From positions 83,489 to 102,462 of the IMG/VR virus record IMGVR_UViG_3300036876_000145: 18,974 bases of DNA; one strand, written 5' to 3'. The notes under the pieces are model-generated. The model saw only the letters and a program-made list of their open reading frames with translations, had not been told where the DNA came from and ran no database searches. Numbering within the stretch: position 1 is the first letter of the stretch; each line of letters opens with the position of its first letter. A program made the translations under genes and the position numbers. This DNA is from a virus (lineage: Duplodnaviria; Heunggongvirae; Uroviricota; Caudoviricetes). This document shows positions 2,640 through 16,226 of this stretch, piece after piece.

Positions 2640-2718
2640 ATTCCGATGGCGTGAGCGGCGAAACCACTTGCCCTACAAGCAAGTATCATCGGGGGTTCGA
2701 GTCCCTCTCGGAATACCA
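2640..2718 (+). tRNA. non-canonical tRNA-like gene; anticodon loop CCUACAA reads as Val-UAC with C33; poorly paired D arm; CCA encoded
   Basis: Acceptor ATTCCGA/TCGGAAT. T arm GGGGG-TTCGAGT-CCCTC, then A73 and CCA. Anticodon stem CTTGC/GCAAG. The D region TGGCGTGAGCGGCGAAACCA offers only a 3-bp TGG/CCA stem. The variable region is 7 nt. Confidence 0.5.
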
Positions 2719-2729
2719 AATTTTAATGT

Positions 2730-2804
2730 GTGGGTGTCGTCCAATGGGAGGACTTTCGGTTTGCACCCGGAGAATGCGAGTTCGAGTCTCGTCACTCTAC
2801 ACCA
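2730..2804 (+). tRNA. tRNA-Ala(UGC) with one bulged nucleotide in the 3' strand of the acceptor stem
   Basis: D arm GTCC-AATGGGA-GGAC. Anticodon arm TTCGG-TTTGCAC-CCGGA. T arm GCGAG-TTCGAGT-CTCGT. The acceptor GTGGGTG pairs with CA(C)TCTAC and keeps G3:U70, A73 and CCA if C2795 is bulged. Confidence 0.7.
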
Positions 2805-2810
2805 AATGTG

Positions 2811-2886
2811 CCGTCCGCGACGGTGATAGATACCAGAAAGCTCTTCGGAGCGCTGGAATGGGGATCAGCCCCTTAGTCATCGCGGC
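2811..2886 (+). ncRNA. tRNA-sized structured spacer made of three hairpins, one capped by C(UUCG)G; not a cloverleaf
   Basis: Hairpins are CCGTC-CGC-GACGG (2811-2823), CCAG..GCTC-TTCG-GAGC..CTGG (2833-2856) and GGGG-ATCAG-CCCC (2860-2872). An alternative end pairing is CCGCGA 2815-2820 with TCGCGG 2880-2885. Confidence 0.3.
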
Positions 2887-2896
2887 TAAATTTATA

Positions 2897-2970
2897 AGCG
2901 GATTAGCCAAGTGGTTAAAGGCATCTGCCTGCAAAGCAGACAAGCACGGGTTCGAATCCCGTATCCGCTT
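2897..2970 (+). tRNA. tRNA-Cys(GCA)
   Basis: Acceptor AGCGGAT/ATCCGCT. D arm GCCA..AGGC with an A13:A22 mismatch. Anticodon loop CTGCAAA (GCA at 2931-2933). T arm ACGGG-TTCGAAT-CCCGT. U73. Confidence 0.9.
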
Positions 2971-2979
2971 CCCAAATTT

Positions 2980-3056
2980 GGGGGTATAGTTCCAACTGGT
3001 AGAACAGCGGCTTGTCGCGCCGATGGTTGCGGGTTCGAATCCCGTTACCCCCGCCA
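2980..3056 (+). tRNA. tRNA-Asp(GUC), CCA encoded
   Basis: Acceptor GGGGGTA/TACCCCC. D arm GTTC-CAACTGGTA-GAAC. Anticodon loop TTGTCGC (GTC at 3014-3016). T arm GCGGG-TTCGAAT-CCCGT. G73 and CCA. Confidence 0.92.
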
Positions 3057-3060
3057 GTTT

Positions 3061-3138
3061 GGTGTGTTGGAGGAGTCTGGTCTTCCTCGCTTCCCTGTCA
3101 CGGAAGATATCACACGGGTTCAAATCCCGTACACACCG
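3061..3138 (+). tRNA. second tRNA-Asp(GUC), with an 11-nt D loop and 7-nt variable region; no encoded CCA
   Basis: Acceptor GGTGTGT/ACACACC. D arm GAGG..CCTC. Anticodon arm CTTCC-CTGTCAC-GGAAG (GTC at 3097-3099). T arm ACGGG-TTCAAAT-CCCGT. G73. Confidence 0.8.
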
Positions 3139-3147
3139 CTTTCGTGA

Positions 3148-3179
3148 CTTCCTGAGTATTAAGTAGAGTACTCAGGAAG
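3148..3179 (+). promoter_or_regulatory. 11-bp hairpin sequestering the GIY-YIG ribosome-binding site
   Basis: CTTCCTGAGTA (3148-3158) pairs perfectly with TACTCAGGAAG (3169-3179). The 3' arm contains the AGGAAG SD, 4 nt before ATG 3184. Confidence 0.55.
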
Positions 3180-3183
3180 GTTC

Positions 3184-3834
3184 ATGATGAAATACACAGT
3201 CTACAAAACTGTGAATCTGGTCAACGGCAAGTTCTACATCGGTGTCCACAAGACGGACAATCCGAATGATGACTACCTTGGTTCTGGGAAGTTCATCAAA
3301 CGAGCCGTTGCGAAGTACGGAGAGCAGAATTTTCGCAAGGAAATTTTGGCTGTCTTTGAAATCCAGAGAGAAGCTTTCGATCTCGAAAAGAAACTCGTGG
3401 TTGAAGCGAAAGTTGATCCACTGTGTTACAACCTGAAAGCTGGCGGTGAAGGTGGGTTTGACTGGATCAATCGTAAGGGATTGAATAACTCGAACGAGAA
3501 CGGCGTGAAAGGAAATCGGGTTACAATTGGAAAAATAAAAACTGACCCAAAGGTAAAGAAGCGATTTACTGACAGGATCAATCGAGTTAGACAGTATCGT
3601 ACTCAAGACTACAAAGCTCGAATTCCTTCGATGTTACAAAAGTGGACAGGACAGCATCATACCGCCGAGACAAAGGCTAGACTTAGCGAAACGCATAAAG
3701 GTAAGAGCAACGGACGCTTTGGAAAACAGTGGATGTATCATCTCGAATCGCAGAGATCAAAGCCTGTCTCACCGGACGAGATCAATAGCCACATTGAACA
3801 AGGTTGGTTGATTGGTCGCCGGATGAAATTTTAG
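3184..3834 (+). CDS. free-standing GIY-YIG homing endonuclease (Seg/I-TevI-like)
   Basis: The N-terminus KYTVYKTVNLVNGKFYIGVHKT...YLGSGK...R...E..E is the classical GIY-YIG motif set. The gene sits between tRNA genes. ATG 3187 is an alternative start. The stop is TAG. Confidence 0.9.
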   Translation: MMKYTVYKTVNLVNGKFYIGVHKTDNPNDDYLGSGKFIKRAVAKYGEQNFRKEILAVFEIQREAFDLEKKLVVEAKVDPLCYNLKAGGEGGFDWINRKGLNNSNENGVKGNRVTIGKIKTDPKVKKRFTDRINRVRQYRTQDYKARIPSMLQKWTGQHHTAETKARLSETHKGKSNGRFGKQWMYHLESQRSKPVSPDEINSHIEQGWLIGRRMKF

Positions 3835-3841
3835 GAGAGAC

Positions 3842-4054
3842 GTGAAGATTCTCTACGATGAACAGCGGCATCTGATCACGGTGCCGTACTCGAAAGAGAA
3901 TCTACATGAAGCAGCGCGGCAGTTGGGTATTAAGCGTTGCTGGTTTCACAAAGACCACTACGACGTTCCTAAGAGAATGATGTCTCGGATGTCGGAGACG
4001 GTAGCAGAAAAAGTTTCGCCGCGTGAAGTTTTGAAGATCGTGCGCGGCAAGTAA
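3842..4054 (+). CDS. DUF4031-family small protein (70 aa)
   Basis: The pattern NLHEAARQLGIKRCWFHKDHYDVP matches my recollection of the DUF4031 signature (ELH.FA..G..R.WF....HYDVP). GTG start with a GGAG SD at 3834-3837. Confidence 0.75.
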   Translation: MKILYDEQRHLITVPYSKENLHEAARQLGIKRCWFHKDHYDVPKRMMSRMSETVAEKVSPREVLKIVRGK

Positions 4055-4058
4055 GTTT

Positions 4059-4135
4059 GGATGGATAGCCAAGTAGGAAAGGCGCTCCCCTGCAAAGGGA
4101 GTCATGCGGGGGTTCAATTCCCTCTCCATCCTCCA
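4059..4135 (+). tRNA. second tRNA-Cys(GCA), CCA encoded
   Basis: Acceptor GGATGGA/TCCATCC. D arm GCCA..AGGC (A13:A22). Anticodon arm CTCCC-CTGCAAA-GGGAG (GCA at 4092-4094). T arm GGGGG-TTCAATT-CCCTC. U73 and CCA. Confidence 0.88.
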
Positions 4136-4137
4136 AA

Positions 4138-4519
4138 TGTACCAGTTCGGGACAACCGCTGGCAGGAAGTTTCTGCGGGAGGGAAAGTTCGGGGCTTCAT
4201 AGAGTACCGTGCGGGGTAACTCCCCGGCGACGGCGCAAGCCGTTGACAATTAGAGCTACAGAGACGAGTCACAGAAGGTGTGCTTGGAAGCGCGTAAGAT
4301 TCACGTCGGTAGTGTTGATGTGAAATGCCCGACCAAGTCCCCTGATGTGGGTGAAACGAGCAATCTTCACGGGAAGCAAGTGCAAATAGGCTGACAGGAA
4401 CTACTCGTTCCGTTATGAATCAGCGGGTAGCATGCTTGAGCGTTGGAGTAATTCAACGCCTAGACGAATGGTTGTCGCCGCGCAAGCGGAACAGAACCCC
4501 GGCTAATAGGACTGGTACA
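4138..4519 (+). ncRNA. rnpB: RNase P RNA, bacterial type A (M1-like), apparently complete
   Basis: P1 4138-4146/4511-4519. P2 4151-4157/4470-4476. P3 4162-4176. CR-I-like GGGAGGGAAAGTTCGGGGCTTCATAGAG at 4177-4204. P8 4212-4226. P9 ACGGC-GCAA-GCCGT at 4230-4243. AAGCAAGTGCAAATAGG at 4374-4390. GGGTAGCATGCTTGAG at 4425-4440. GCCTAGACGAATGG at 4458-4471. AACAGAACCCCGGCTAATAGG at 4490-4510. These align with the recalled E. coli M1 RNA sequence. Confidence 0.9.
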
Positions 4520-4541
4520 AGTTTATGAGTTTTTGAACTAT

Positions 4542-4568
4542 GAGCGACCTATATTAGAGAGGTCGCTC
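4542..4568 (+). promoter_or_regulatory. 8-bp hairpin occluding the SD and GTG start of the HNH gene
   Basis: GAGCGACC (4542-4549) pairs with GGTCGCTC (4561-4568). Wobble and AU pairs extend the stem into GTG 4569-4571. The GAGAGG SD lies at the loop/stem junction. Confidence 0.5.
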
Positions 4569-5006
4569 GTGACAAGTCAAAAAGAAGTTCAAAGACAATT
4601 AGGAATGAGTCGAGGAACCGCCAACTACAGATTGGCGCGTCTTTTACTCTTCAAATACATGCAGCAAGCTGGGGCGGACAACTGTTTTCGCTGCGGTCTA
4701 AAGCTTGAAACGGTTGAAGATTTTAGTATTGAGCATAAAAAACCGTGGTTGTACGCATCCCCAGATTTATATTGGGATTTGGAAAATATTGCTTTTTCGC
4801 ATCGCGCATGTAATTCGGGCGCAGCTAGACAGATCAATAAGACCAAAATGAGTCTTAGATCAGTAGGACCGGAAGGAACAAGTTGGTGTACGGAACATAA
4901 ACAGTTTCTTTCAGTCGATGAATTTCAAAAAAATTCCGCTATTTGGAACGGCTTACAAAGGCAATGCAAAGAATGCCGACAAAAGCGAAATAAAAAGCGG
5001 GCTTAG
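4569..5006 (+). CDS. free-standing HNH homing endonuclease
   Basis: CFRCG...SIEHKKPW...NIAFSHRACN is an HNH motif, and a C-terminal CKEC adds a zinc-finger pair. The ORF is open from TTG 4533, but GTG 4569 has a GAGG SD 6 nt upstream. The TAG stop (5004-5006) lies inside tRNA-Gly. Confidence 0.88.
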   Translation: MTSQKEVQRQLGMSRGTANYRLARLLLFKYMQQAGADNCFRCGLKLETVEDFSIEHKKPWLYASPDLYWDLENIAFSHRACNSGAARQINKTKMSLRSVGPEGTSWCTEHKQFLSVDEFQKNSAIWNGLQRQCKECRQKRNKKRA

Positions 5007-5073
5007 CTCACGCTGGTAGAGCGCTGGTCTTCCAAACCGGAGGTAACGGGATCGTCGCCCGTAGTCCGCTCCA
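4997..5073 (+). tRNA. tRNA-Gly(UCC) with an unusual T loop ATCGTCG (A54/U58 swap); CCA encoded
   Basis: Acceptor GCGGGCT/AGTCCGC. D arm GCTC-ACGCTGGTA-GAGC. Anticodon arm CTGGT-CTTCCAA-ACCGG (TCC at 5031-5033). T stem ACGGG/CCCGT. U73 and CCA. The 5' end overlaps the HNH CDS by 10 nt. Confidence 0.85.
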
Positions 5074-5084
5074 AGTTTAGATAT

Positions 5085-5160
5085 GGCGCACTCTGCTAAC
5101 GGCTAGGCAACCACGTTCTCAGCGTGTGAAATGTGGGTTCAAATCCCGCGTGCGCTACCA
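5085..5160 (+). tRNA. tRNA-Glu(CUC), CCA encoded
   Basis: Acceptor GGCGCAC/GTGCGCT (G1:U72). D arm TGCT-AACGGCTA-GGCA. Anticodon loop TTCTCAG (CTC at 5118-5120). T arm GTGGG-TTCAAAT-CCCGC. A73 and CCA. Confidence 0.85.
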
Positions 5161-5167
5161 GATTTTG

Positions 5168-5222
5168 GCTGACCATGTTCGGCAAGGTCAGCGGTTGGGG
5201 GACATGGCTCAGTACAACCGCT
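5168..5222 (+). other. structured spacer in a tRNA-sized slot: two overlapping hairpins, no cloverleaf
   Basis: GCTGACC (5168-5174) pairs with GGTCAGC (5186-5192). AGCGGTTG (5190-5197) pairs with CAACCGCT (5215-5222). The loop of the second hairpin contains TGGCTCAGT, which resembles a D loop. Confidence 0.25.
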
Positions 5223-5231
5223 GATAACCGT

Positions 5232-5307
5232 GGGGCTATGGCGCAGTTGGGAGCGCGTAATCATGGCATGATTAAGGCCGTCGGTTCGAACCCGACTAGC
5301 TCCACCA
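5232..5307 (+). tRNA. tRNA-Ala(GGC), CCA encoded
   Basis: Acceptor GGGGCTA/TAGCTCC with G3:U70. D arm GCGC-AGTTGGGA-GCGC. Anticodon loop ATGGCAT (GGC at 5265-5267). T arm GTCGG-TTCGAAC-CCGAC. A73 and CCA. Confidence 0.93.
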
Positions 5308-5313
5308 GATTTT

Positions 5314-5388
5314 GCGGAAGTAGTTCAGCGGTAGAATATTTCCTTGCCAAGGAAGGGGTCGCGGGTTCAAATCCCGCCTTCCGCTCCA
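5314..5388 (+). tRNA. tRNA-Gly(GCC), CCA encoded
   Basis: Acceptor GCGGAAG/CTTCCGC. Anticodon loop TTGCCAA (GCC at 5346-5348). T arm GCGGG-TTCAAAT-CCCGC. U73 and CCA. Confidence 0.92.
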
Positions 5389-5399
5389 AGTTTAGAAGT

Positions 5400-5461
5400 T
5401 CATGGATGCCTAGATGTCGGTGGCTAACCGAAAGGTCGCGGGTTCAATGTCCGTTCCATGT
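5400..5461 (+). ncRNA. 62-nt truncated tRNA-like RNA with normal acceptor and T arms but no normal D-plus-anticodon region
   Basis: Acceptor CATGGA/TCCATG. T arm GCGGG-TTCAATG-TCCGT. The interior is only 31 nt and folds in one of two ways. Fold 1 is GCC-11 nt-GGC plus ACC-GAAA-GGT. Fold 2 is TCGGT-GGCTA-ACCGA with no D arm. It abuts the next tRNA with no spacer. Confidence 0.4.
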
Positions 5462-5537
5462 GGGGCTATAGCGCAGTTGGGAGCGCGTCTCGTTCGCAAC
5501 GAGAAGGTCGTGAGTTCGAATCTCACTAGCTCCACCA
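5462..5537 (+). tRNA. tRNA-Ala(CGC), CCA encoded
   Basis: Acceptor and D arm are nearly identical to Ala(GGC), with G3:U70. Anticodon loop TTCGCAA (CGC at 5495-5497). T arm GTGAG-TTCGAAT-CTCAC. A73 and CCA. Confidence 0.93.
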
Positions 5538-5544
5538 AGTTATT

Positions 5545-5617
5545 GCGGGTGTAGTTCAATGGTAGAATATTCGGTTCCCAACCGAAAGATTTGTCGGTTC
5601 GAGTCCGACCATCCGCT
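5545..5617 (+). tRNA. tRNA-Gly(CCC)
   Basis: Acceptor GCGGGTG/CATCCGC. D arm GTTC-AATGGTA-GAAT. Anticodon loop TTCCCAA (CCC at 5577-5579). T arm GTCGG-TTCGAGT-CCGAC. U73. CCA is not fully encoded. Confidence 0.88.
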
Positions 5618-5624
5618 CCGTTTT

Positions 5625-5768
5625 ATGAGAGAGTGTCCAAAGTGCGGTAAGAAAGAACAATGGGAAATCGGTTGGATTTCTACTACCAATGAATGGCGCT
5701 GGCATTGTCTGTCTTGTGATATTCGTTTTAATGATGATGGCGTAATTTACACACCAGAAAAAGTTTAG
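5625..5768 (+). CDS. 47-aa zinc-ribbon protein (MRECPKCGKKEQWEIGWISTTNEWRWHCLSCDIRFNDDGVIYTPEKV)
   Basis: A CPKC...CLSC pair of Cys knuckles. The track ORF 5559-5768 begins inside tRNA-Gly, so ATG 5625 is the first start outside it. No clear SD. Confidence 0.55.
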   Translation: MRECPKCGKKEQWEIGWISTTNEWRWHCLSCDIRFNDDGVIYTPEKV

Positions 5769-5787
5769 GGCCGTGGGACTGCATTGG

Positions 5788-5815
5788 GGTGGTTCGAATC
5801 TCACTAGCTCCACCA
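5788..5815 (+). pseudogene. orphan 3' fragment of tRNA-Ala (T loop, acceptor 3' strand and CCA)
   Basis: 5792-5819 is a perfect 28-nt copy of 5514-5541, the 3' end of tRNA-Ala(CGC) plus its spacer. No matching 5' half or cloverleaf lies upstream. Confidence 0.6.
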
Positions 5816-5822
5816 AGTTTAC

Positions 5823-5926
5823 GTAGGCTTCCGAGGGATACCTCGGTGACAGTTGTTCTGAGGTCATCTCTTCATGAGGGGCTGAACAGGGAACGGCAGC
5901 GTGGGGAAACCCACAAGCCTACACCA
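5823..5926 (+). ncRNA. 104-nt tRNA-shaped RNA of unrecognised family: 8-bp acceptor-like stem plus A-CCA, SelC-like 6-bp/4-nt D arm, long anticodon-like arm with loop CUUCAUG, and a GAAA-capped T-arm substitute
   Basis: GTAGGCTT (5823-5830) pairs with AAGCCTAC (5915-5922), then A and CCA. D arm CCGAGG-GATA-CCTCGG at 5831-5846. TGTTC 5854-5858 pairs with GAACA 5884-5888, stacked on an imperfect stem 5862-5869/5877-5883 with loop 5870-5876. GTGGG-GAAA-CCCAC at 5901-5914. The flanking spacers match those of real tRNAs in the array. Confidence 0.5.
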
Positions 5927-5929
5927 TTT

Positions 5930-6005
5930 GCGCTGTTAGATTAGCGGTAAAATCGTCACCATGACAAGGTGAAAATCGGGGGTTCGATTCCCTCACGGCG
6001 CACCA
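5930..6005 (+). tRNA. tRNA-Val(GAC), CCA encoded
   Basis: Acceptor GCGCTGT/ACGGCGC. D arm GATT-AGCGGTAA-AATC. Anticodon loop ATGACAA (GAC at 5963-5965). T arm GGGGG-TTCGATT-CCCTC. A73 and CCA. Confidence 0.92.
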
Positions 6006-6017
6006 GTTTTTAAATAT

Positions 6018-6095
6018 GGCGTTGTCTTCTAAATGGTCTAGGAAAACTGACTTTCAATCAGTGGAATGCCGGTTCAACTCCGGTCAACGCTACCA
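6018..6095 (+). tRNA. tRNA-Glu(UUC), CCA encoded
   Basis: Acceptor GGCGTTG/CAACGCT (G1:U72). Anticodon arm ACTGA-CTTTCAA-TCAGT (TTC at 6053-6055). T arm GCCGG-TTCAACT-CCGGT. A73 and CCA. Confidence 0.85.
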
Positions 6096-6102
6096 GAATT
6101 GA

Positions 6103-6177
6103 GAGGGAGTAGCTCAGCGGTAGAGCAGAATATTGCCAATATTCAGGTCGCGGGTTCAACTCCCGTCTCCCTCTCCA
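6103..6177 (+). tRNA. second tRNA-Gly(GCC), CCA encoded
   Basis: Acceptor GAGGGAG/CTCCCTC. D arm GCTC-AGCGGTA-GAGC. Anticodon loop TTGCCAA (GCC at 6135-6137). T arm GCGGG-TTCAACT-CCCGT. U73 and CCA. Confidence 0.92.
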
Positions 6178-6226
6178 ACATTTATGCGAATCTATTCAAA
6201 AGTTTATTTTCGCTTTATGGTGTGTT

Positions 6227-6382
6227 ATGAGAAAACTAAAGAGACTAAGCAAGGTCAAACTCGTGAAGGAAATGTCCAGGGAGAGGGTGCCAGTCCCCGC
6301 GACCCGCAAGATTGAAAATAAGAAAAAGAAATTTTTGCGTTACTTAGAAACACATTGGCAGGAAGATGAATTGGGGGTATAG
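6227..6382 (+). CDS. 51-aa highly basic ORF (MRKLKRLSKVKLVKEMSRERVPVPATRKIENKKKKFLRYLETHWQEDELGV), hypothetical
   Basis: Own translation; below the track cutoff. The stop TAG (6380-6382) lies inside the next tRNA-Ala. No clear SD. A 43-codon alternative frame starting at ATG 6184 looks less protein-like. Confidence 0.3.
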   Translation: MRKLKRLSKVKLVKEMSRERVPVPATRKIENKKKKFLRYLETHWQEDELGV

Positions 6383-6448
6383 CTCAGCTGGGAGAGCGCA
6401 TCGTTTGCAACGATGAGGTCGTCGGTTCGATCCCGTCTACCTCCACCA
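6373..6448 (+). tRNA. tRNA-Ala(UGC), CCA encoded
   Basis: Acceptor GGGGGTA/TACCTCC with G3:U70. D arm GCTC-AGCTGGGA-GAGC. Anticodon loop TTTGCAA (TGC at 6406-6408). T arm GTCGG-TTCGATC-CCGTC with one U:U mismatch. A73 and CCA. Confidence 0.9.
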
Positions 6449-9078: not shown

Positions 9079-9762
9079 ATGTTCAATTACATCCCTACTT
9101 CCAGGTTAGCTGCCTCATCCGTTTCTCCCCTAAAAACAGCCCCCCGATTTAGAAGTGACCTATTACTCCCAAAAAATAAAAATTGGGCTCAAAGTGTAAA
9201 TTATCTTCGTGATTTTTATACAGATATTCAATTACTCTGGGGTGTTCATGAATCTGAGTCCAACGATCCTTACGACCCAGAGAAAGATAGACAAATTTTT
9301 AAAAAACTAGAGCCTATGCTCCACGAATTGATTCTTGGGATGGATGGAGTATCCAAAGAGCGTACTCAGCGTATGGATATTGCTAAGGCTATTCAAACGG
9401 CTATTTACGATTTCGAAACAGCAACTACTTATGCTCAAACTACAGATTATGCGATGGCGTTAGTATATTTTAATTATGCTTTGGATAGAATTCATTACCA
9501 ACTTGACAGTTTGACAATTGAAGCAAATAAAGAAAACAGTAGTAGGAAGTTGGGTTACGGGTATGACACATCAGGAAATATTGGGGAACAAGGTGGAACT
9601 AGCGGAAACGATAGACATCAATGGGATACCGGGAATTCACCAAAACTCGATAGAACCCCAATGAATCCAGCTAATATGGGAGATTTTGAAGCAGAAAATG
9701 ACTACCCTGAACTTGCAAAATTTAAACATAAAAGAGTATTTTGGCCGCCGCGTACACGATAA
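9079..9762 (+). CDS. hypothetical protein, 227 aa
   Basis: A complete ORF with an AGGAGA SD and a TAA stop, immediately upstream of the tail-fibre genes. No family recognised. Confidence 0.75.
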   Translation: MFNYIPTSRLAASSVSPLKTAPRFRSDLLLPKNKNWAQSVNYLRDFYTDIQLLWGVHESESNDPYDPEKDRQIFKKLEPMLHELILGMDGVSKERTQRMDIAKAIQTAIYDFETATTYAQTTDYAMALVYFNYALDRIHYQLDSLTIEANKENSSRKLGYGYDTSGNIGEQGGTSGNDRHQWDTGNSPKLDRTPMNPANMGDFEAENDYPELAKFKHKRVFWPPRTR

Positions 9763-9770
9763 GGATAAAT

Positions 9771-12347
9771 ATGTCATCGCCAACTAAAGTAGTTATATTC
9801 AATCCCACATCCACTCTTTTTGATATTGTAAATGGAGTTGATGGCGTTATTGTTCCTTCCAGTGGCGCTGCTTCGGCTGGTATTCCTGTAGTACTGAATC
9901 CTAATGGTGTTATTGATCCTAGTCTTACAAGCAGTGGTGTATCCGCATTGGTTAACTCATTTACTGGATTATCTAGTGGTAATTTGGTGACTTTGTACAT
10001 AAGTGGTGGTGTGTTAGTTATGCAGCCATCTACTGCATCTCCCACTGGACACGGAGTAAATGCTCCTGAACCTCCCAACGGCTGGTATTCTCCCGCGTTA
10101 GGGTTTGTTGATGCCTCTTACAATTATGGGGTAACCGGCACTGTATATTTTTCAGGTAGTTTTAAGTACACAGACACAATCGGGGAGTTTACGGCTAATA
10201 GTGTAGGCGATGTTGTATGGCTAGCGGATTCCGGAGACGGCTTGCACAGCCCAGGCGCTATCACACTCACAACCCCAGCAAGTCAATCATCACCACCATA
10301 CTCACCTTTAAGACAGTCTGTGGGACTGGTCACTAACTATGTGGGTGGAGTAGTAACCGTAAGTTTTAACCCATCGTTTCCAAATTCTGGCATAGGAACT
10401 GTTACAAGTGTAGGTTTAGCTGTACCTTCATGGCTGACTATAAGCAGTGCTAGTAATCCAATTATTTATAATGGCACTTTTACCATCGCTTCGGCACTTG
10501 GATTAGCAGCGAATCAAGTACTCGCAACACCTATCTCTGGCACTGGCATTTTGAGTCCTAGATTATTGGTAGCTAAAGATATTCCAGGTGTTTCAGGAGT
10601 AACTGTAAGCAGCACACCTCCAACTACAAATCAAATTCTCGTAGCTACCAGTGGAACTACCGCTACATGGCAAACTTTTTCAACAGGCTCGGGCACTGTA
10701 AACTCTGGAACTGGGGGACAACTTGCTTTTTATTCCGCTACTGGAACTACAGTATCAGGTAACGCCAATGTTACAGCATCTGTTGGTACTCTTACTTTGG
10801 GGGTGCCCGGATCGGTTGTAGGGTCGATAATATTAGGTCAGTCAAATGCTTTCACAACCATTATAACCGGTGCGGCAACATCTAATTGGACTATGACCTT
10901 GCCTCCGACGGCCGGAACATCAGGGCAACAATTACAAACTAATGGATCGGGTGTAACCACTTGGGTGACACCATCTACCACACAAAACGCACAAACTGGA
11001 ACTTCGTATTTATTCGCAAATTCCGATAACGGCAAATATATATCTTTTAAAAATACATCCGCTGTAACCGTTACTATCCCACAAGCCGGAGCGTCAAGTC
11101 AATTTTTAAGTGGGTGGTATTGCTTCATGCAAAATTTAGGTATAGGACAAGTAACAGTTGTTCCAACTATATCTACTATCAATACTTTTCCCAATATAAT
11201 TTTAGGTACATTCCAATCAGCTATGATTGTATCTGACGGAACCAATTATGAATGTACATTTACGAAAATAGTAAGTACAGATTATTATAATTCTATTAGT
11301 GCGTACCTGCAAAATGATGCCTCTGTTACTGAAGCTCAAAACCAAATCGTAATGCAGGATTTTTCAGTCGGGGGAAACAACCTAAAACGAAAAGGTTTGA
11401 ATATATTTTTAGAAACGAATGCTCAAATGGCAGCAACAAATTATGATGGGTTGCAGGTTAATGTGGGGGCTACGATTGCTTCCAATACTTCCGCATCCGC
11501 GGGACCTGTGGAAGCTGCTGAATTTTCAATATTTGCCTCTGGTTCTGCTGTTACATTACCCCAAATTAATGGTGTAAAAATTCGCACTAATGTACAAGCA
11601 AGTACGGCAGTCCAGAATGTAGTAGGGCTGAATTTTTACTTACCTGAAGTGTTTGGAACAGTAACAAATTATATCGGAATCTATATGGATTCCCCAACTG
11701 GCGGTGGGGTTATAGGCACATCTATAGGCGTAACAGCAGGATTAACACTTAATAATTTAAGTGCAGTTACAAATGAAATTGGATTGATTGCTTATGGAGC
11801 ATCGACCCCATCCACTTATGGGTACGGGATTTTGTCCACCGGTAAAACAGCCGGTATAGTTGCGAATGATCAAACAGTGGTGGGAAGTTTTATCGGACAC
11901 GGCGGAACATTTTCTTCTTACCCTATTGTTTTGCATGATGGTTGGTATGGAGGTACGGGAAGTCCTGAGGGGTCTCTTACCGCAGCTGTGGGATCAATGT
12001 TCTCTCGACAGGATAGCACCATTGGAGATTCTTTTTATGTAAAAACTTCAGGATCAGGAAATACTGGTTGGTCTCCAAGTTCAACTGTGGGACCCATTAA
12101 AACTGTGCTATCGACTTATTCTGTCACGAATTCTGATTCTACCATTAACTGTACAGGAACTTTTACAGTTACTTTACCTATTACAGGTATCGCGGTAGGA
12201 AAGAAATTTCGTGTTAAAAATATAGGGGTAGGTACAATCACAATTTCTTCAACTGCTAACATAGATTTTACAACATCTATATCTTTAACTATACAAGGTC
12301 AGGGTATAGAAGTGCAATGGGATGGCACACAGTATTGGTTGTACTAA
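9771..12347 (+). CDS. tail fibre protein (858 aa from ATG 9771; ORF open from 9741)
   Basis: The composition is G/T/S/A/V/N-rich and beta-rich. Fibre motifs include GTVTSVGLAVPSWL...NQVLATP..G....PR.L...DIP and GQQLQTNGSGVTTW. ATG 9771 follows the upstream stop and a TAAGGA SD. Confidence 0.9.
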   Translation: MSSPTKVVIFNPTSTLFDIVNGVDGVIVPSSGAASAGIPVVLNPNGVIDPSLTSSGVSALVNSFTGLSSGNLVTLYISGGVLVMQPSTASPTGHGVNAPEPPNGWYSPALGFVDASYNYGVTGTVYFSGSFKYTDTIGEFTANSVGDVVWLADSGDGLHSPGAITLTTPASQSSPPYSPLRQSVGLVTNYVGGVVTVSFNPSFPNSGIGTVTSVGLAVPSWLTISSASNPIIYNGTFTIASALGLAANQVLATPISGTGILSPRLLVAKDIPGVSGVTVSSTPPTTNQILVATSGTTATWQTFSTGSGTVNSGTGGQLAFYSATGTTVSGNANVTASVGTLTLGVPGSVVGSIILGQSNAFTTIITGAATSNWTMTLPPTAGTSGQQLQTNGSGVTTWVTPSTTQNAQTGTSYLFANSDNGKYISFKNTSAVTVTIPQAGASSQFLSGWYCFMQNLGIGQVTVVPTISTINTFPNIILGTFQSAMIVSDGTNYECTFTKIVSTDYYNSISAYLQNDASVTEAQNQIVMQDFSVGGNNLKRKGLNIFLETNAQMAATNYDGLQVNVGATIASNTSASAGPVEAAEFSIFASGSAVTLPQINGVKIRTNVQASTAVQNVVGLNFYLPEVFGTVTNYIGIYMDSPTGGGVIGTSIGVTAGLTLNNLSAVTNEIGLIAYGASTPSTYGYGILSTGKTAGIVANDQTVVGSFIGHGGTFSSYPIVLHDGWYGGTGSPEGSLTAAVGSMFSRQDSTIGDSFYVKTSGSGNTGWSPSSTVGPIKTVLSTYSVTNSDSTINCTGTFTVTLPITGIAVGKKFRVKNIGVGTITISSTANIDFTTSISLTIQGQGIEVQWDGTQYWLY

Positions 12348-12356
12348 GGAAAATAA

Positions 12357-15300
12357 ATGTCTTTTAATTATCCACAAGCTCAAAACGCATTATCACTACA
12401 AGGAAATACTGTAGCTTCTACCACCCCAACTGCGGGGCAAGTACTGGTTTGGAATGGAAGCCAGTGGCAACCCGGAGCAGGAGCATCGGGGGCTAATTAT
12501 AATGTTGTTTATTCCAGTGATTACAACTGGAGTTTGAATTATCAAGCAGGGTGGGGGGCTCTTACGGCTGGTGTGCCAGCTACTTTAACTTTAGCAACCT
12601 GCCCTGTAGGAGTTGACACAAGCGCATCTACTATTTTAGGTGGCCCACAAGGGGCCTATTCGATTTATATCTCCGGATCAGACGGAATAGCGGAGGTTGT
12701 TAAAATTACAGGAGGTACTTGTACTCCTGGTATGACAAATGGGACAATACAATTTATTCCAGCTAATAATCATACTGTATCTGGCGGTAGTCCTCCAACT
12801 GGTTATACTTTAAGTTCAGCAACCGCTGGAATCCAAGAAGCAATCAATACAGCTTGCGGTACAAGTCAAACTTACTACGATAACTCTAACTGTAAAGTGG
12901 TTATTCCTCCATCAGGGGAATTGAGTGGAATGAATGGATACAATATTTATGACACAATCTACTTCCATTCAAATCAAAGTATCCTCAGTGGGTATGGAGC
13001 AACATTAAATCATTATGGAAGAGGCCCATGCCTACAGTTAGGAAATCTACTCAGTTCGAACGATTATGTGAGCAATAGAATAGAAGGTATGATGTTTCGG
13101 GCTCCTGTTTACCAGACAGCAACTGGAACTCTTAACACAAATGGCACAGCTGTGGTAACAGCTGCCGGAATCAGTAAATTCGGCACAAACTGGGCGTCTG
13201 GGTCTAACATATTAATTAATGGAACTGCCTACACGATCGCATTTGTCAACAGCAACACTCAAATAACATTGACAACCACAATTTTAACAGCATCAGGTTT
13301 ATCTTATGCTTATCAAGCGTACTCTGGGTCTTTAATTACAAGCACTCAAAGAACGAACGGGGTTACTACAATTACCACCAGCGAACCCCACGGGTTTGTA
13401 ACTGGGGATCGCGTAACTCAAATGCTGACCGATAATTCAGCTTTTTGGGGGGATGTTCCTTACATAACAGTTACTAGTCCAACTACCTATACATATGGAC
13501 GCTGGCTAAATGGGAATTCCGCAAGTAATATTACTGCAACTTCTATCACATCGAATGTCCTTACGATAATGGCGAATAATAGCTTTACTGTAGGGGAAAA
13601 TGTTCTTTTAGCGGGGACATCTGAAAGTTATCTTAACAATAAAGTAGTGACAGTCGCAAGTTTATTGGGGGCTAGCGGTTCTCCCCCAACATATACAGGA
13701 TTTACAGCGAACTTCACCGCAACTAACTATTCTAACCCATCAGAGCCGTCTACCGCTGAAGCTTACCCACCAGTAGGTAATATCGCTCTTCAAACCACAC
13801 CGGGGGTGGTTGCTCTTACTTATGTAGCGATATTAGATAACGCTGGAGGCAGTCAATTAGTGGATATTAGTTCTGCAAATGCTTATCAAGAATATTATTT
13901 CAATCATTTTTTTGACCTTTGGGATGACGAGTGCTGTACAATAAAGTCTTTCAATAATAACGCTGGATCCTTACAAAATAATGTAAACTGGACAGGATCT
14001 TTTATATGGTCTGGGGGAGCCTCCGGTTTACCTTTAGCTGCCAATCAACTAGCCCCTGTCATTACCCTTAAAGATTCTAATATTACGGCCAATTGCTCGA
14101 ATGGTGTTACAGTCTATAACTCCAACGGAGTTTATATTCATGATACAGTTCTGCAAGCAACCGGACCTTGGCAGGTGTATACGTCTAATGCCACAGGTAA
14201 CTATCAAGGGGCCCACTTGGAAAATTTGTATTCTGAATCTTCCGCTAGCTCCAATCCAGCCTCCCCTGTTCGTAGCCCCTATGCAGGCTGTGGTATTGCA
14301 GGAGCAATTTTTGGGCCAAGCACGGGAGCGGCTTCTTTTAGAATTAAAGGAACGGGGGTTGAAGGGCAACTTCCAACTGTAGGTGCAGGTGCAACATCCT
14401 ATCTCTATTATGTAGTAATTAATGATACAACAACGGGCACATCATCTGCCCCTCTGCCTGTAATGATTGCGAATTCCAACGGAGGGGCAGTTACAGTTTC
14501 TTGGCCACGAGTATCAAATGGAACAGATTCTATTACATATGATGTATTGCGTGTTTCTCCGAATACATTAGGAAGTATATCAAATATCGGTCCTTACACT
14601 GGAGGTTGTCCTGGTGGGGTTACACAATCACCCCCTAGTGTTAGCACAATGGGAAGTGTAGTGACTGGGCAAGCTCAACAATCTGGCTTTATTCAGACTT
14701 TTGTGGATAATACTACAGTTCCCACATCAAATTATCCTACAGTGCCGATCGGGAGTTATCAAGGTAATATTTTGTTCTGGCCTGGACAAGCGATTACTGT
14801 AGGAATAACCCCTATTATCAGCGACAATATTGTTAATGTTTATAGTACAGGGGCGTGTGGAAGTCCGACAAATATTTGTTTATATCCAGGACACGGAAGT
14901 GGTGCGGCACCAGCTATATCGGCATCTACCGCTACTAGTTTCGCTTTAAACGATTTATATGAACAACAAGCTCTTATTTTAAATGATGGCTGGTATCAAG
15001 GACCACAAACAGCAAATCTTAAAGGACGTTTGCAATTTGCCTCATCTGGGTTAGCTTTCCCGGGAGAGGTTAATAACGGACATATTATTACTTTAGTGGA
15101 TTCTGATCCTCAATTGACCAGGGCTTACGCATTAAATCGTCCACCCAATTCATCTTCTGATTGTTTCATTGGAATTGACGGTATTGGTCCATATTACGCT
15201 AATGTAGCTCCAATTGCTATAGGCTCTCCAGTTTCTATTAGTCATTATATAGCAAACATTGGTGACGGTACGAATTGGAAAGAACGATTAACATCATCAG

Positions 15301-16226
15301 TTAAACAGTTCAAAGTTCCTGTACAACTAGAGTCAGTAACATTTGCTACTTTACCATCATCCCCAGCGAATGGCATGGAAGTATATTGTTCTGATTGTAC
15401 TTTTGGATCAAACCCCTGTACAGGTAGTGGCACAGGATCTTTTGCATATCGAGTTAATGGCGCGTGGGTTTGTAGCGATTCGAGTGGGTCCGGTGGAGTA
15501 AACGCCACTAATTCACCATCACAATATGCTGTAACTACTTGGGTAAACAGCACTACTATTGAAGGCATTGCGCCATCTTCTACAAGTGGGTATCCTTTAT
15601 TATCTAATGGTTCATCTGCGTATGCTTCTTTTGGGCAACTCTCAGTCGGAGCAATTAGTGCCACGGGCACACCGTCTTCCACCACTTATTTGAGGGGAGA
15701 TGGTAGCTGGGCTACTGTATCTGGTAGTGGGACAGTTACTTCTGTAGCGATGACCGTACCAGCCTGGTTATCCGTGAGCGGGTCTCCTATAACCGGCACT
15801 GGTACGCTTGCCATCACTTCAGCGGGGAGTTTGACCCAAAACTGGGTCTTAGCTACTCCTAATGGCAGCAGCGGTGTATTAGCTCCTCGTGCCTTGGTAG
15901 CGGCGGACATTCCAACTTTAGGAGTAAGTACCGTTAGTTTTTCAGCAACGCCAATTTTCAACGCTACTGGTTATAGCGGATTCAAAATAACTCTGACCGG
16001 TAATGTTACCAGCTCCACATTCACAAATGGGACGGCAGGAAGTCTTTACACTTTTGAGATCACGCAGGACGGAACAGGTGGTCGGACATTTGTCTGGCCC
16101 GCTAATTTTAAAGGCGGCGCAAGTGTGACAGATCAGGCCGCAGGATCCAACGAGACAATAGCACAGTTATTTTATTTTGACGGCAGCAATGCACTTGCTG
16201 TTGGTCCAGGAATGGTGACCCCATAA
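12357..16226 (+). CDS. large tail fibre / tailspike-like protein, 1289 aa
   Basis: The N-terminus [15 protein letters not shown] is typical of fibres. The C-terminal module [30 protein letters not shown]...[25 protein letters not shown] is shared with the upstream gene. AAGGAAA SD. Confidence 0.92.

Follow-up and report, generated by a model that had tools for sequence, protein, structure and literature searches.

One element in the phage tRNA array described here raises the question of whether a short RNA-like sequence between two tRNA genes is an unusual tRNA, a tRNA-like RNA with another role, or what is left of a tRNA gene. The element occupies positions 5400-5461 (+) of an 18,974-nt stretch of DNA from an uncultivated phage (this whole stretch is referred to as the window). 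The window encodes an N6/N4 DNA methylase, GIY-YIG and HNH homing-type endonucleases, a DUF4031 protein, a metallophosphoesterase and an HhH (helix-hairpin-helix) protein, with two large tail-fibre-like ORFs at 9741-16226, one of which has a weak match to a domain of phage phiTE.

ARAGORN with default settings identified 16 tRNA genes between 2640 and 6448 (+), in an array that is split by endonuclease genes and an RNase P RNA. The 16 tRNAs of the window read only GNN codons (four Gly, four Ala, two Val, two Glu and two Asp) and those for Cys (two), the four tRNA-Gly anticodons being TCC, GCC, CCC and GCC, and decoding is restricted likewise to GNN and Cys in the arrays of L020, L021 and L304-L306. 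CCA is encoded in 14 of the 16 tRNAs (a complete CCA is missing from the second tRNA-Asp, 3061-3139, and from tRNA-Gly(CCC), 5545-5619), and a T occupies the -1 position before 14 of the 16. No promoter-like or terminator-like site was found between 5000 and 6500 and a strong terminator lies upstream of the array, which makes transcription of 2640-6448 as one polycistronic precursor compatible with the data.

A complete RNase P RNA of bacterial type A (4139-4522, +; Rfam RF00010, 169 bits compared to a gathering score of 100) is located inside the array, directly 3' of tRNA-Cys, and is likely the catalyst of array processing. Further RNase P RNAs were detected in L021 (143-455; 208 bits) and, as a partial copy, in L304 (1-191), and sequence comparison indicates that three or more diverged phage lineages have kept an RNase P RNA within the tRNA array. 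No description of a phage-encoded RNase P RNA came up in the literature under the search terms used. The HNH gene at 4569-5006 has homologues (L141-L171, 37-56% identity) that recur in large tRNA arrays on many unrelated viral contigs, suggesting an array-specific lineage of homing endonucleases.

The element is flanked upstream by a tRNA-Gly(GCC) (5314-5388, +), which is among the closest paralogues of its T arm, and downstream by a tRNA-Ala(CGC) (5462-5537, +; called by ARAGORN and scoring 70.4 bits with Rfam). A 12-nt spacer, AGTTTAGAAGTT (5389-5400, +), leads from the CCA of tRNA-Gly(GCC) to the element and follows the same grammar as other spacers of the array, e.g., AGTTTAGATAT at 5074-5084; its T5400 is either the -1 base or a mismatched position 1. 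The acceptor-like 5' strand CAUGGA (5401-5406, +) forms six Watson-Crick pairs with 5455-5460, and the acceptor-like 3' strand (5455-5461, +) consists of UCCAUG and an unpaired U5461 in the discriminator position. The acceptor therefore has six pairs and not seven, 5400/5461 being a U.U mismatch. The T arm (5438-5454, +) is made up of GCGGG (5438-5442), the canonical loop UUCAAUG (5443-5449) and UCCGU (5450-5454), and its stem contains three G-C and two G.U pairs (G49.U65 and G53.U61), with the closing pair G53.U61 standing where tRNAs have G53-C61. RNA folding and covariance-model alignment place a 31-nt interior (5407-5437, +) where the D and anticodon arms would be, containing a hairpin UCGGU-GGCUA-ACCGA (5417-5431), an optional outer GCCU/AGGU helix (5408-5411/5433-5436) and a variable-loop-like AGGUC (5433-5437). 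When written as a 7-nt loop, UGGCUAA, the hairpin has G33 where tRNAs have U33. U5461 is followed neither by CCA nor by a spacer, G1 of tRNA-Ala(CGC) being at 5462. The layout given in the preliminary description (acceptor and T arm in canonical register, a 31-nt interior and zero spacing to tRNA-Ala(CGC)) was thus found again helix by helix. Its further statement that both arms are intact is qualified by the U.U mismatch, which leaves the acceptor at 6 bp, and by the G53.U61 pair in the T stem.

RNAfold predicted a minimum free energy of -17.5 kcal/mol for the element, with acceptor, central arm and T arm all formed, compared to -23 to -29 kcal/mol for the neighbouring tRNAs, and its folding energy was unremarkable (z = -0.5). 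The acceptor pairs had probabilities of 0.76-0.89 in the isolated element. Both interior folds proposed earlier were recovered, with almost equal energies (-16.0 and -15.7 kcal/mol) and a pair probability of 0.04 for the GCC/GGC stem of the alternative, D-like form. The stable form of the central hairpin has a 5-nt loop, and opening it to the 7-nt loop gave -12.8 kcal/mol, i.e., 2.9-4.7 kcal/mol (about 3-5) less stable. Folding energy is a poor test of tRNA-likeness and geometry was scanned for that reason, the pattern being a TTCRANN loop on a 5-bp T stem with an in-register acceptor, 6 bp or longer, immediately 3' of that stem. Dinucleotide shuffles totalling 4.8 Mb yielded nine matches (0.035 per 19-kb window), while all 16 matches in real phage arrays that were not ARAGORN calls lay on the array strand, with one match only on the minus strands of all real loci. 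The element therefore has a genuine tRNA-type architecture, beyond chance.

The standard detectors passed the element over. ARAGORN made no call with default settings, and a search of an 81-nt slice against Rfam gave nothing overlapping 5389-5461 even at E <= 10. YrlA and the other tRNA-like families of Rfam (the tRNA-like domain of tmRNA, viral tRNA-like structures) were likewise rejected as candidates, with no match at E <= 10. We built an array-specific covariance model (R1) from 35 tRNAs of the window array and three related arrays. With this model the element scored 14.3 bits, compared to 45.6-83.5 bits for the 16 real tRNAs, and was the best non-tRNA match (E ~0.009 for the two strands of the 4.2-kb array); level with it, at 13.5 bits, was a truncated tRNA (5775-5815). 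The R1 alignment retained acceptor pairs 2-7, U8 and the T arm, deleted the D loop, and matched GUCGG-UGGCUAA-CCGAA to the anticodon arm and AGGUC to the variable loop. The mitochondrial mode of ARAGORN, which had been proposed as a check, did return a 63-nt 'D-loop mtRNA-Ser(gct)' at 5400-5462, but it also made 40 calls in 20 shuffled windows (~2 per window) and four other calls within coding genes of the window, and this label therefore carries little weight. Bacterial mode, with the score threshold set to 80%, reported a 73-nt tRNA-Ser(gct) of poor quality at 5390-5462. Besides escaping these detectors, the element has no 7-bp acceptor with CCA, no D arm and no loop with U33.

The best-scoring paralogues of the element were three tRNA-Gly(CCC) genes of three arrays, followed by Gly(GCC). 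The stretch TCGGT..AACCGAAAG matches the anticodon stem of tRNA-Gly(CCC) (5545-5619), and the loop TGGCTAA departs from TTGCCAA, the loop of Gly(GCC), at two positions, with G for U33 and U for C36. A run of 15 nt, AGGTCGCGGGTTCAA (5433-5447), is identical to the T-arm region of a tRNA-Gly(GCC) at 6145-6159, and a second tRNA-Gly(GCC) copy shares 14 identical nt (5357-5370) with the T-arm region of the element. Both T-stem changes relative to Gly(GCC) preserve pairing as G.U. No Gly acceptor is related to the acceptor strands, which are nearest to those of tRNA-Cys at 4059-4135 (GGATGGATAGCC / TCCATCC-T in tRNA-Cys, CATGGATGCC / TCCATG-T in the element). This combination of a Gly-like body with acceptor strands unlike those of Gly makes the element look chimeric. 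The body, from the 3' half of the D loop to the T arm, would come from the tRNA-Gly paralogues of the same array, and the acceptor strands would have another origin, most like tRNA-Cys. Compared to a working tRNA the element has lost ~10-12 nt of the D arm, U33, the Gly anticodon, C61, the 1:72 pair, CCA and the downstream spacer. Similarity to paralogues (Gly(CCC) and Gly(GCC)) together with the loss of essential parts is the pattern of a tRNA pseudogene. With its Gly-like body and collapsed D arm, the comparison to paralogues leans towards the refuting case named in the preliminary description, a full-length tRNA shortened by a simple deletion.

The same phage, with a 100% identical array, was found in seven metagenome contigs, and three further contigs showed at most 1-2 differences in the compared region, none within the element. 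The element is thus identical in ten independent contigs of one strain (one of the ten assemblies, L303, has frameshifted genes typical of long-read data). An assembly artefact was rejected on the grounds of this identity across ten independent assemblies. Related arrays were found via homologues of the HNH protein (L020, L021 and L304-L307), and L019 via a 94%-identical neighbouring protein. None of L020, L021 and L304-L307 contains a homologue of the element, Gly(GCC) there preceding other things; in L304-L306, Gly(GCC) with its CCA is followed by AGTTTTAAGTT, a near-identical spacer, and then directly by tRNA-Ala. The closest lineage, L019 (88-98% identity), begins 110 nt downstream of the element. 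Other anchors added little. No relatives of a 47-aa zinc-ribbon ORF were found, the metallophosphoesterase and a 119-aa protein led to identical copies or non-syntenic phages apart from L019, the members of the HNH protein cluster belong to the same strain, and a conserved 14-mer lying 5' of the HNH gene proved too unspecific, with matches at 119 unrelated viral loci.

Wider searches were also negative. We found no homologue of the element in 2.8 Mb of fetched loci, and exact and degenerate patterns had no match among viral contigs, a looser pattern giving two chance matches. In genome contigs the pattern scans had no match or hit coding DNA by chance, and the metagenome scan was flooded by tandem tRNA-Ala genes of gut bacteria, none of them related. 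Megablast of the window and blastn of the element against GenBank phages returned only T-arm matches to ordinary tRNAs. A mobile mini-element with 6-bp terminal inverted repeats was rejected, as no further copies turned up anywhere searched. In the conservation check the element was identical within its strain and absent from the other arrays (L020, L021, L304-L307), and nothing was found to support a conserved decoy or minihelix function, the element being invariant in one strain with no homologue in related arrays, fetched loci or pattern scans.

Gene order differs in every pair of related arrays, and to judge from these comparisons the phage tRNA arrays rearrange and decay quickly. A truncated chimeric tRNA at 5769-5815 (+), compared with L019 198-277, has its 5' acceptor and D arm from tRNA-Ala(CGC), full-length in L019, and a T-loop and 3' end identical to the tRNA-Ala(CGC) at 5462-5537, and its acceptor strands are unpaired. 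By alignment with L019, this is demonstrably direct evidence for tRNA gene decay in the window strain.

Other structured RNAs were observed in these arrays. Positions 5816-5929 (+) are predicted to form a ~100-nt structured RNA in which GUAGGCUU and AAGCCUAC pair to enclose three hairpins (folding z = -4.2; none of 200 shuffles was as stable). This segment had no Rfam match at gathering scores, a weak below-threshold match to permuted tmRNA lies at 5789-5895 (15.3 bits, E 4.5), and the segment is missing from the alignment of L019 with the window. The 71-nt gap before tRNA-Ala(GGC) (5161-5231, +) contains a 10-11-bp hairpin, UCAGCGGUUG/CAACCGCUGA, alongside pairings that compete with it. In the corresponding place, L020 (1025-1140) and L021 (1244-1360) have a cloverleaf-like element that scores 22-25 bits with the array model and abuts tRNA-Ala. 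It has a D arm, a T arm and an anticodon arm capped by a 4- or 6-nt loop, and stands on an extended outer helix (GACGGC/GCCGUC in L020, GAACGGC/GCCGUUC in L021). No Rfam family reached threshold for it, a weak tmRNA match at L021 1312-1341 scoring 18.7 bits compared to 47. An RNA-like module of ~130-140 nt, GTGTGATCCGC...GCCGTAGCT.GGCTGCGAGAT...GGGACACAC, is present at L020 724-860, L021 1736-1875, L304 197-325 and L306 105-233; it had no Rfam match and was not seen in the window.

Short tRNA-like genes also occur in other phage arrays. L170 (IMGVR_UViG_3300017530_000053), whose array is HNH-linked and unrelated, carries at 5504-5552 (+) a 45-nt module with a 7-bp acceptor and a T arm joined by a 14-nt linker, directly after tRNA-Arg(CCT) with no spacer and followed by an encoded ACCA. 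This module is a singleton in the viral collection and apparently an internal-deletion derivative. The tRNAs at L147 10442-10508 and at L171 2929-2995, 3342-3409 and 3468-3535 are 67-68 nt long, each with a closed acceptor, a closed T arm and a very short D arm, and ARAGORN with default settings missed all of them. By eye, the anticodon loops are canonical in L147 (Trp CCA), L171 2929 (Arg CCT) and L171 3468 (TCG), R1 scores were 31 bits for L147 and 38 bits for L171 2929, and these short tRNAs are evidently functional. A reduced D arm alone is therefore not disqualifying, and the earlier premise that phages have no tRNAs with reduced D arms was too strong. The element differs from these short tRNAs in its non-canonical loop and missing CCA.

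We regard the element, with moderate confidence, as a young, lineage-specific tRNA remnant that does not decode (a pseudogene or a recombination remnant). It cannot decode because it has G33, a preferred loop of 5 nt, no D-arm core, a 6-bp acceptor, G53.U61 and no synthetase identity set. The Gly identity elements G1-C72, G3-C70 and C36 are absent, as is a long variable arm, on which bacterial SerRS depends. A remnant is also indicated by an R1 score (14.3 bits) near that of the truncated tRNA (13.5 bits), by low stability, by the absence of CCA and by occurrence in one strain, together with the decay seen next door at 5769-5815 and the singleton 45-nt deletion derivative of L170. Several features speak against it. 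The 6-bp acceptor is perfectly Watson-Crick even though it is unrelated to a Gly acceptor, the T loop is canonical, the altered T-stem positions still pair, as G.U, the 5' spacer and -1 U conform to the processing grammar, and U5461 lies exactly at the discriminator place, where an RNase P cut of tRNA-Ala would leave a CCA-ready end. These features would be equally expected of a module retained for a non-decoding role, and the zero sequence variation within the strain means that neutrality is not demonstrable.

Since the acceptor/T top half is intact apart from its G.U pairs and the array is presumably co-transcribed, the element is probably still excised by RNase P. The cut at the 5' end of tRNA-Ala (5461/5462) would generate the 3' end of the element, and its own acceptor/T stack probably directs a second cut near 5400/5401. 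The product would be an RNA of ~61 nt with an unpaired U at its 3' end, a possible substrate for extension by the CCA-adding enzyme of the host.

A tentative alternative, which we consider possible but rather unlikely, is that the element is a non-decoding tRNA-like mimic of the top half of a tRNA. It would be excised by RNase P on both sides, receive CCA and, as a decoy or sponge, soak up host toxins or nucleases that attack tRNA tails, or RNase P or the CCA-adding enzyme, or it would serve as a structured leader for maturation of tRNA-Ala(CGC). Such a role fits the non-random acceptor and T geometry with its canonical T loop, the array-type spacer and -1 U, the 3' end at the discriminator with zero spacing to tRNA-Ala, and the presence of a phage RNase P RNA in the same array. 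The tRNA-like cloverleaf of L020 and L021, which has no normal anticodon loop, also abuts tRNA-Ala, and its outer helices differ between the two arrays by an extra base per strand in a way that looks compensatory; these elements have, however, no detectable homology to the one described here. A mimic is further argued against by the lack of conservation outside one clonal strain and of a homologue anywhere searched, by the low stability and ambiguous interior fold, by G53.U61, which weakens the T-loop platform, and by the comparable mini-element of L170, which is likewise a singleton. A broader proposal, that phage arrays may deliberately carry anticodon-less top-half mimics (the element, the L170 module and the L020/L021 cloverleaves), seems doubtful to us; such RNAs would be excised by the phage's own RNase P, receive CCA and titrate host defences or enzymes that act on the acceptor end.

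The element can be compared with several known systems. Minihelices of acceptor and T arm are substrates of RNase P, the CCA-adding enzyme and some synthetases. The element resembles them in its predicted coaxial acceptor and T stack, canonical T loop and 3' end at the discriminator position, and differs in having 11 pairs plus a U.U mismatch instead of 12 pairs, a 31-nt insert, and neither G3.U70 nor another known minihelix identity set. The tRNA cluster of phage T4 produces dimeric precursors in which adjoining tRNAs lack an encoded CCA, contains homing endonuclease genes and also yields stable non-tRNA species, the species 1 and 2 RNAs (rnaC and rnaD). The element would share with it the zero spacer, a 3' end made by the RNase P cut of the downstream tRNA and a later addition of CCA, and both cases place non-tRNA small RNAs within a phage tRNA cluster with homing endonuclease genes; the T4 partners are, however, complete tRNAs, with no sequence relation to the element. 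mascRNA, from the MALAT1/MEN-beta 3' ends, is eukaryotic and conserved and has a demonstrated processing role. Like the element it is a ~60-nt tRNA-like RNA without a conserved anticodon loop, for which excision and CCA tailing are possible, but no homology to the element was found and the element is not conserved. How to tell canonical tRNA genes of prokaryotes from fragments of tRNA genes is the subject of bioRxiv 10.1101/2022.07.05.498093. The element is like prokaryotic and phage tRNA fragments in being tRNA-derived, in failing detection, in having lost parts and in lying among functional paralogues. A fragment is typically a piece from the 3' or 5' side that has no closed acceptor helix, whereas the element keeps a closed acceptor and T arm and resembles an internal-deletion or chimeric derivative.

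A different kind of remnant, which we judge improbable, would take in the whole 73-nt gap (5389/5390 to 5461/5462) as a full-length, badly degenerated tRNA-Gly-like pseudogene, with GTTCATGG as the old D stem and loop and the CAUGGA/UCCAUG helix as fortuitous. The length of the gap is exactly that of one tRNA, the 80%-threshold ARAGORN call covers 5390-5462, and global alignment sets AGTTCATGG against the D arm AGTTCAATGG of tRNA-Gly(CCC). The 73-nt model has, however, a poor acceptor (two G.U pairs and two mismatches) and a D stem of three positions with two real pairs, its identity to Gly (48-51 positions) does not stand out from the background between unrelated tRNAs (median 49), and a perfect in-register 6-bp helix is improbable by chance. 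Because 5389-5400 resembles an ordinary array spacer and is near-identical in L304-L306, a module of 61-62 nt is favoured over a degenerate tRNA of 73 nt.

A working D-armless tRNA-Ser(GCU), after the manner of metazoan mitochondrial tRNA-Ser(AGY), appears very improbable. The mitochondrial-mode ARAGORN call at 5400-5462 and a loop UGGCUAA able to present GCU point to it, and the element is like metazoan mitochondrial tRNA-Ser(GCU/UCU) in its ~62-nt length, acceptor and T arm, short connector and GCU in the loop. It differs from them in G33, the 6-bp acceptor, G53.U61, the lack of conservation and its place in an array for Gly, Ala, Val, Glu, Asp and Cys. The 7-nt loop costs 3-5 kcal/mol, there is no CCA, the long variable arm needed by bacterial SerRS is absent and false calls in mitochondrial mode are frequent. 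To our knowledge no co-evolved SerRS or EF-Tu for a D-armless tRNA-Ser exists in bacteria. This part of the preliminary description was accordingly set aside, in view of G33, the costly 7-nt loop and an array holding only GNN and UGY decoders. Equally remote is a chance set of hairpins in spacer DNA with no tRNA relation, to which the unremarkable folding z and the absence of an Rfam match would be congenial and against which stand the rate of 0.035 geometry matches per shuffled window, the R1 E-value over the array, the 14-15-nt identities and anticodon-stem match to neighbouring tRNA-Gly genes, and the position on the array strand in a tRNA-sized slot.

We see the element as one more tRNA-derived remnant, of a kind already known, in a phage array that is dynamic, and the array around it is the more notable of the two. 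If it is only a decayed copy, it shows how fast arrays with homing endonuclease genes shuffle and erode, and it warns that tRNA finders in mitochondrial mode label such remnants as exotic D-armless tRNAs. If it gives rise to a stable, CCA-tailed RNA, it would be a rare case of a non-decoding tRNA mimic in a bacterial virus and would connect phage tRNA arrays, in a way open to testing, with host defences directed at the ends of tRNAs. The more promising lead is the phage RNase P RNA and the several unclassified structured RNAs that are interleaved with GNN-specific tRNAs.
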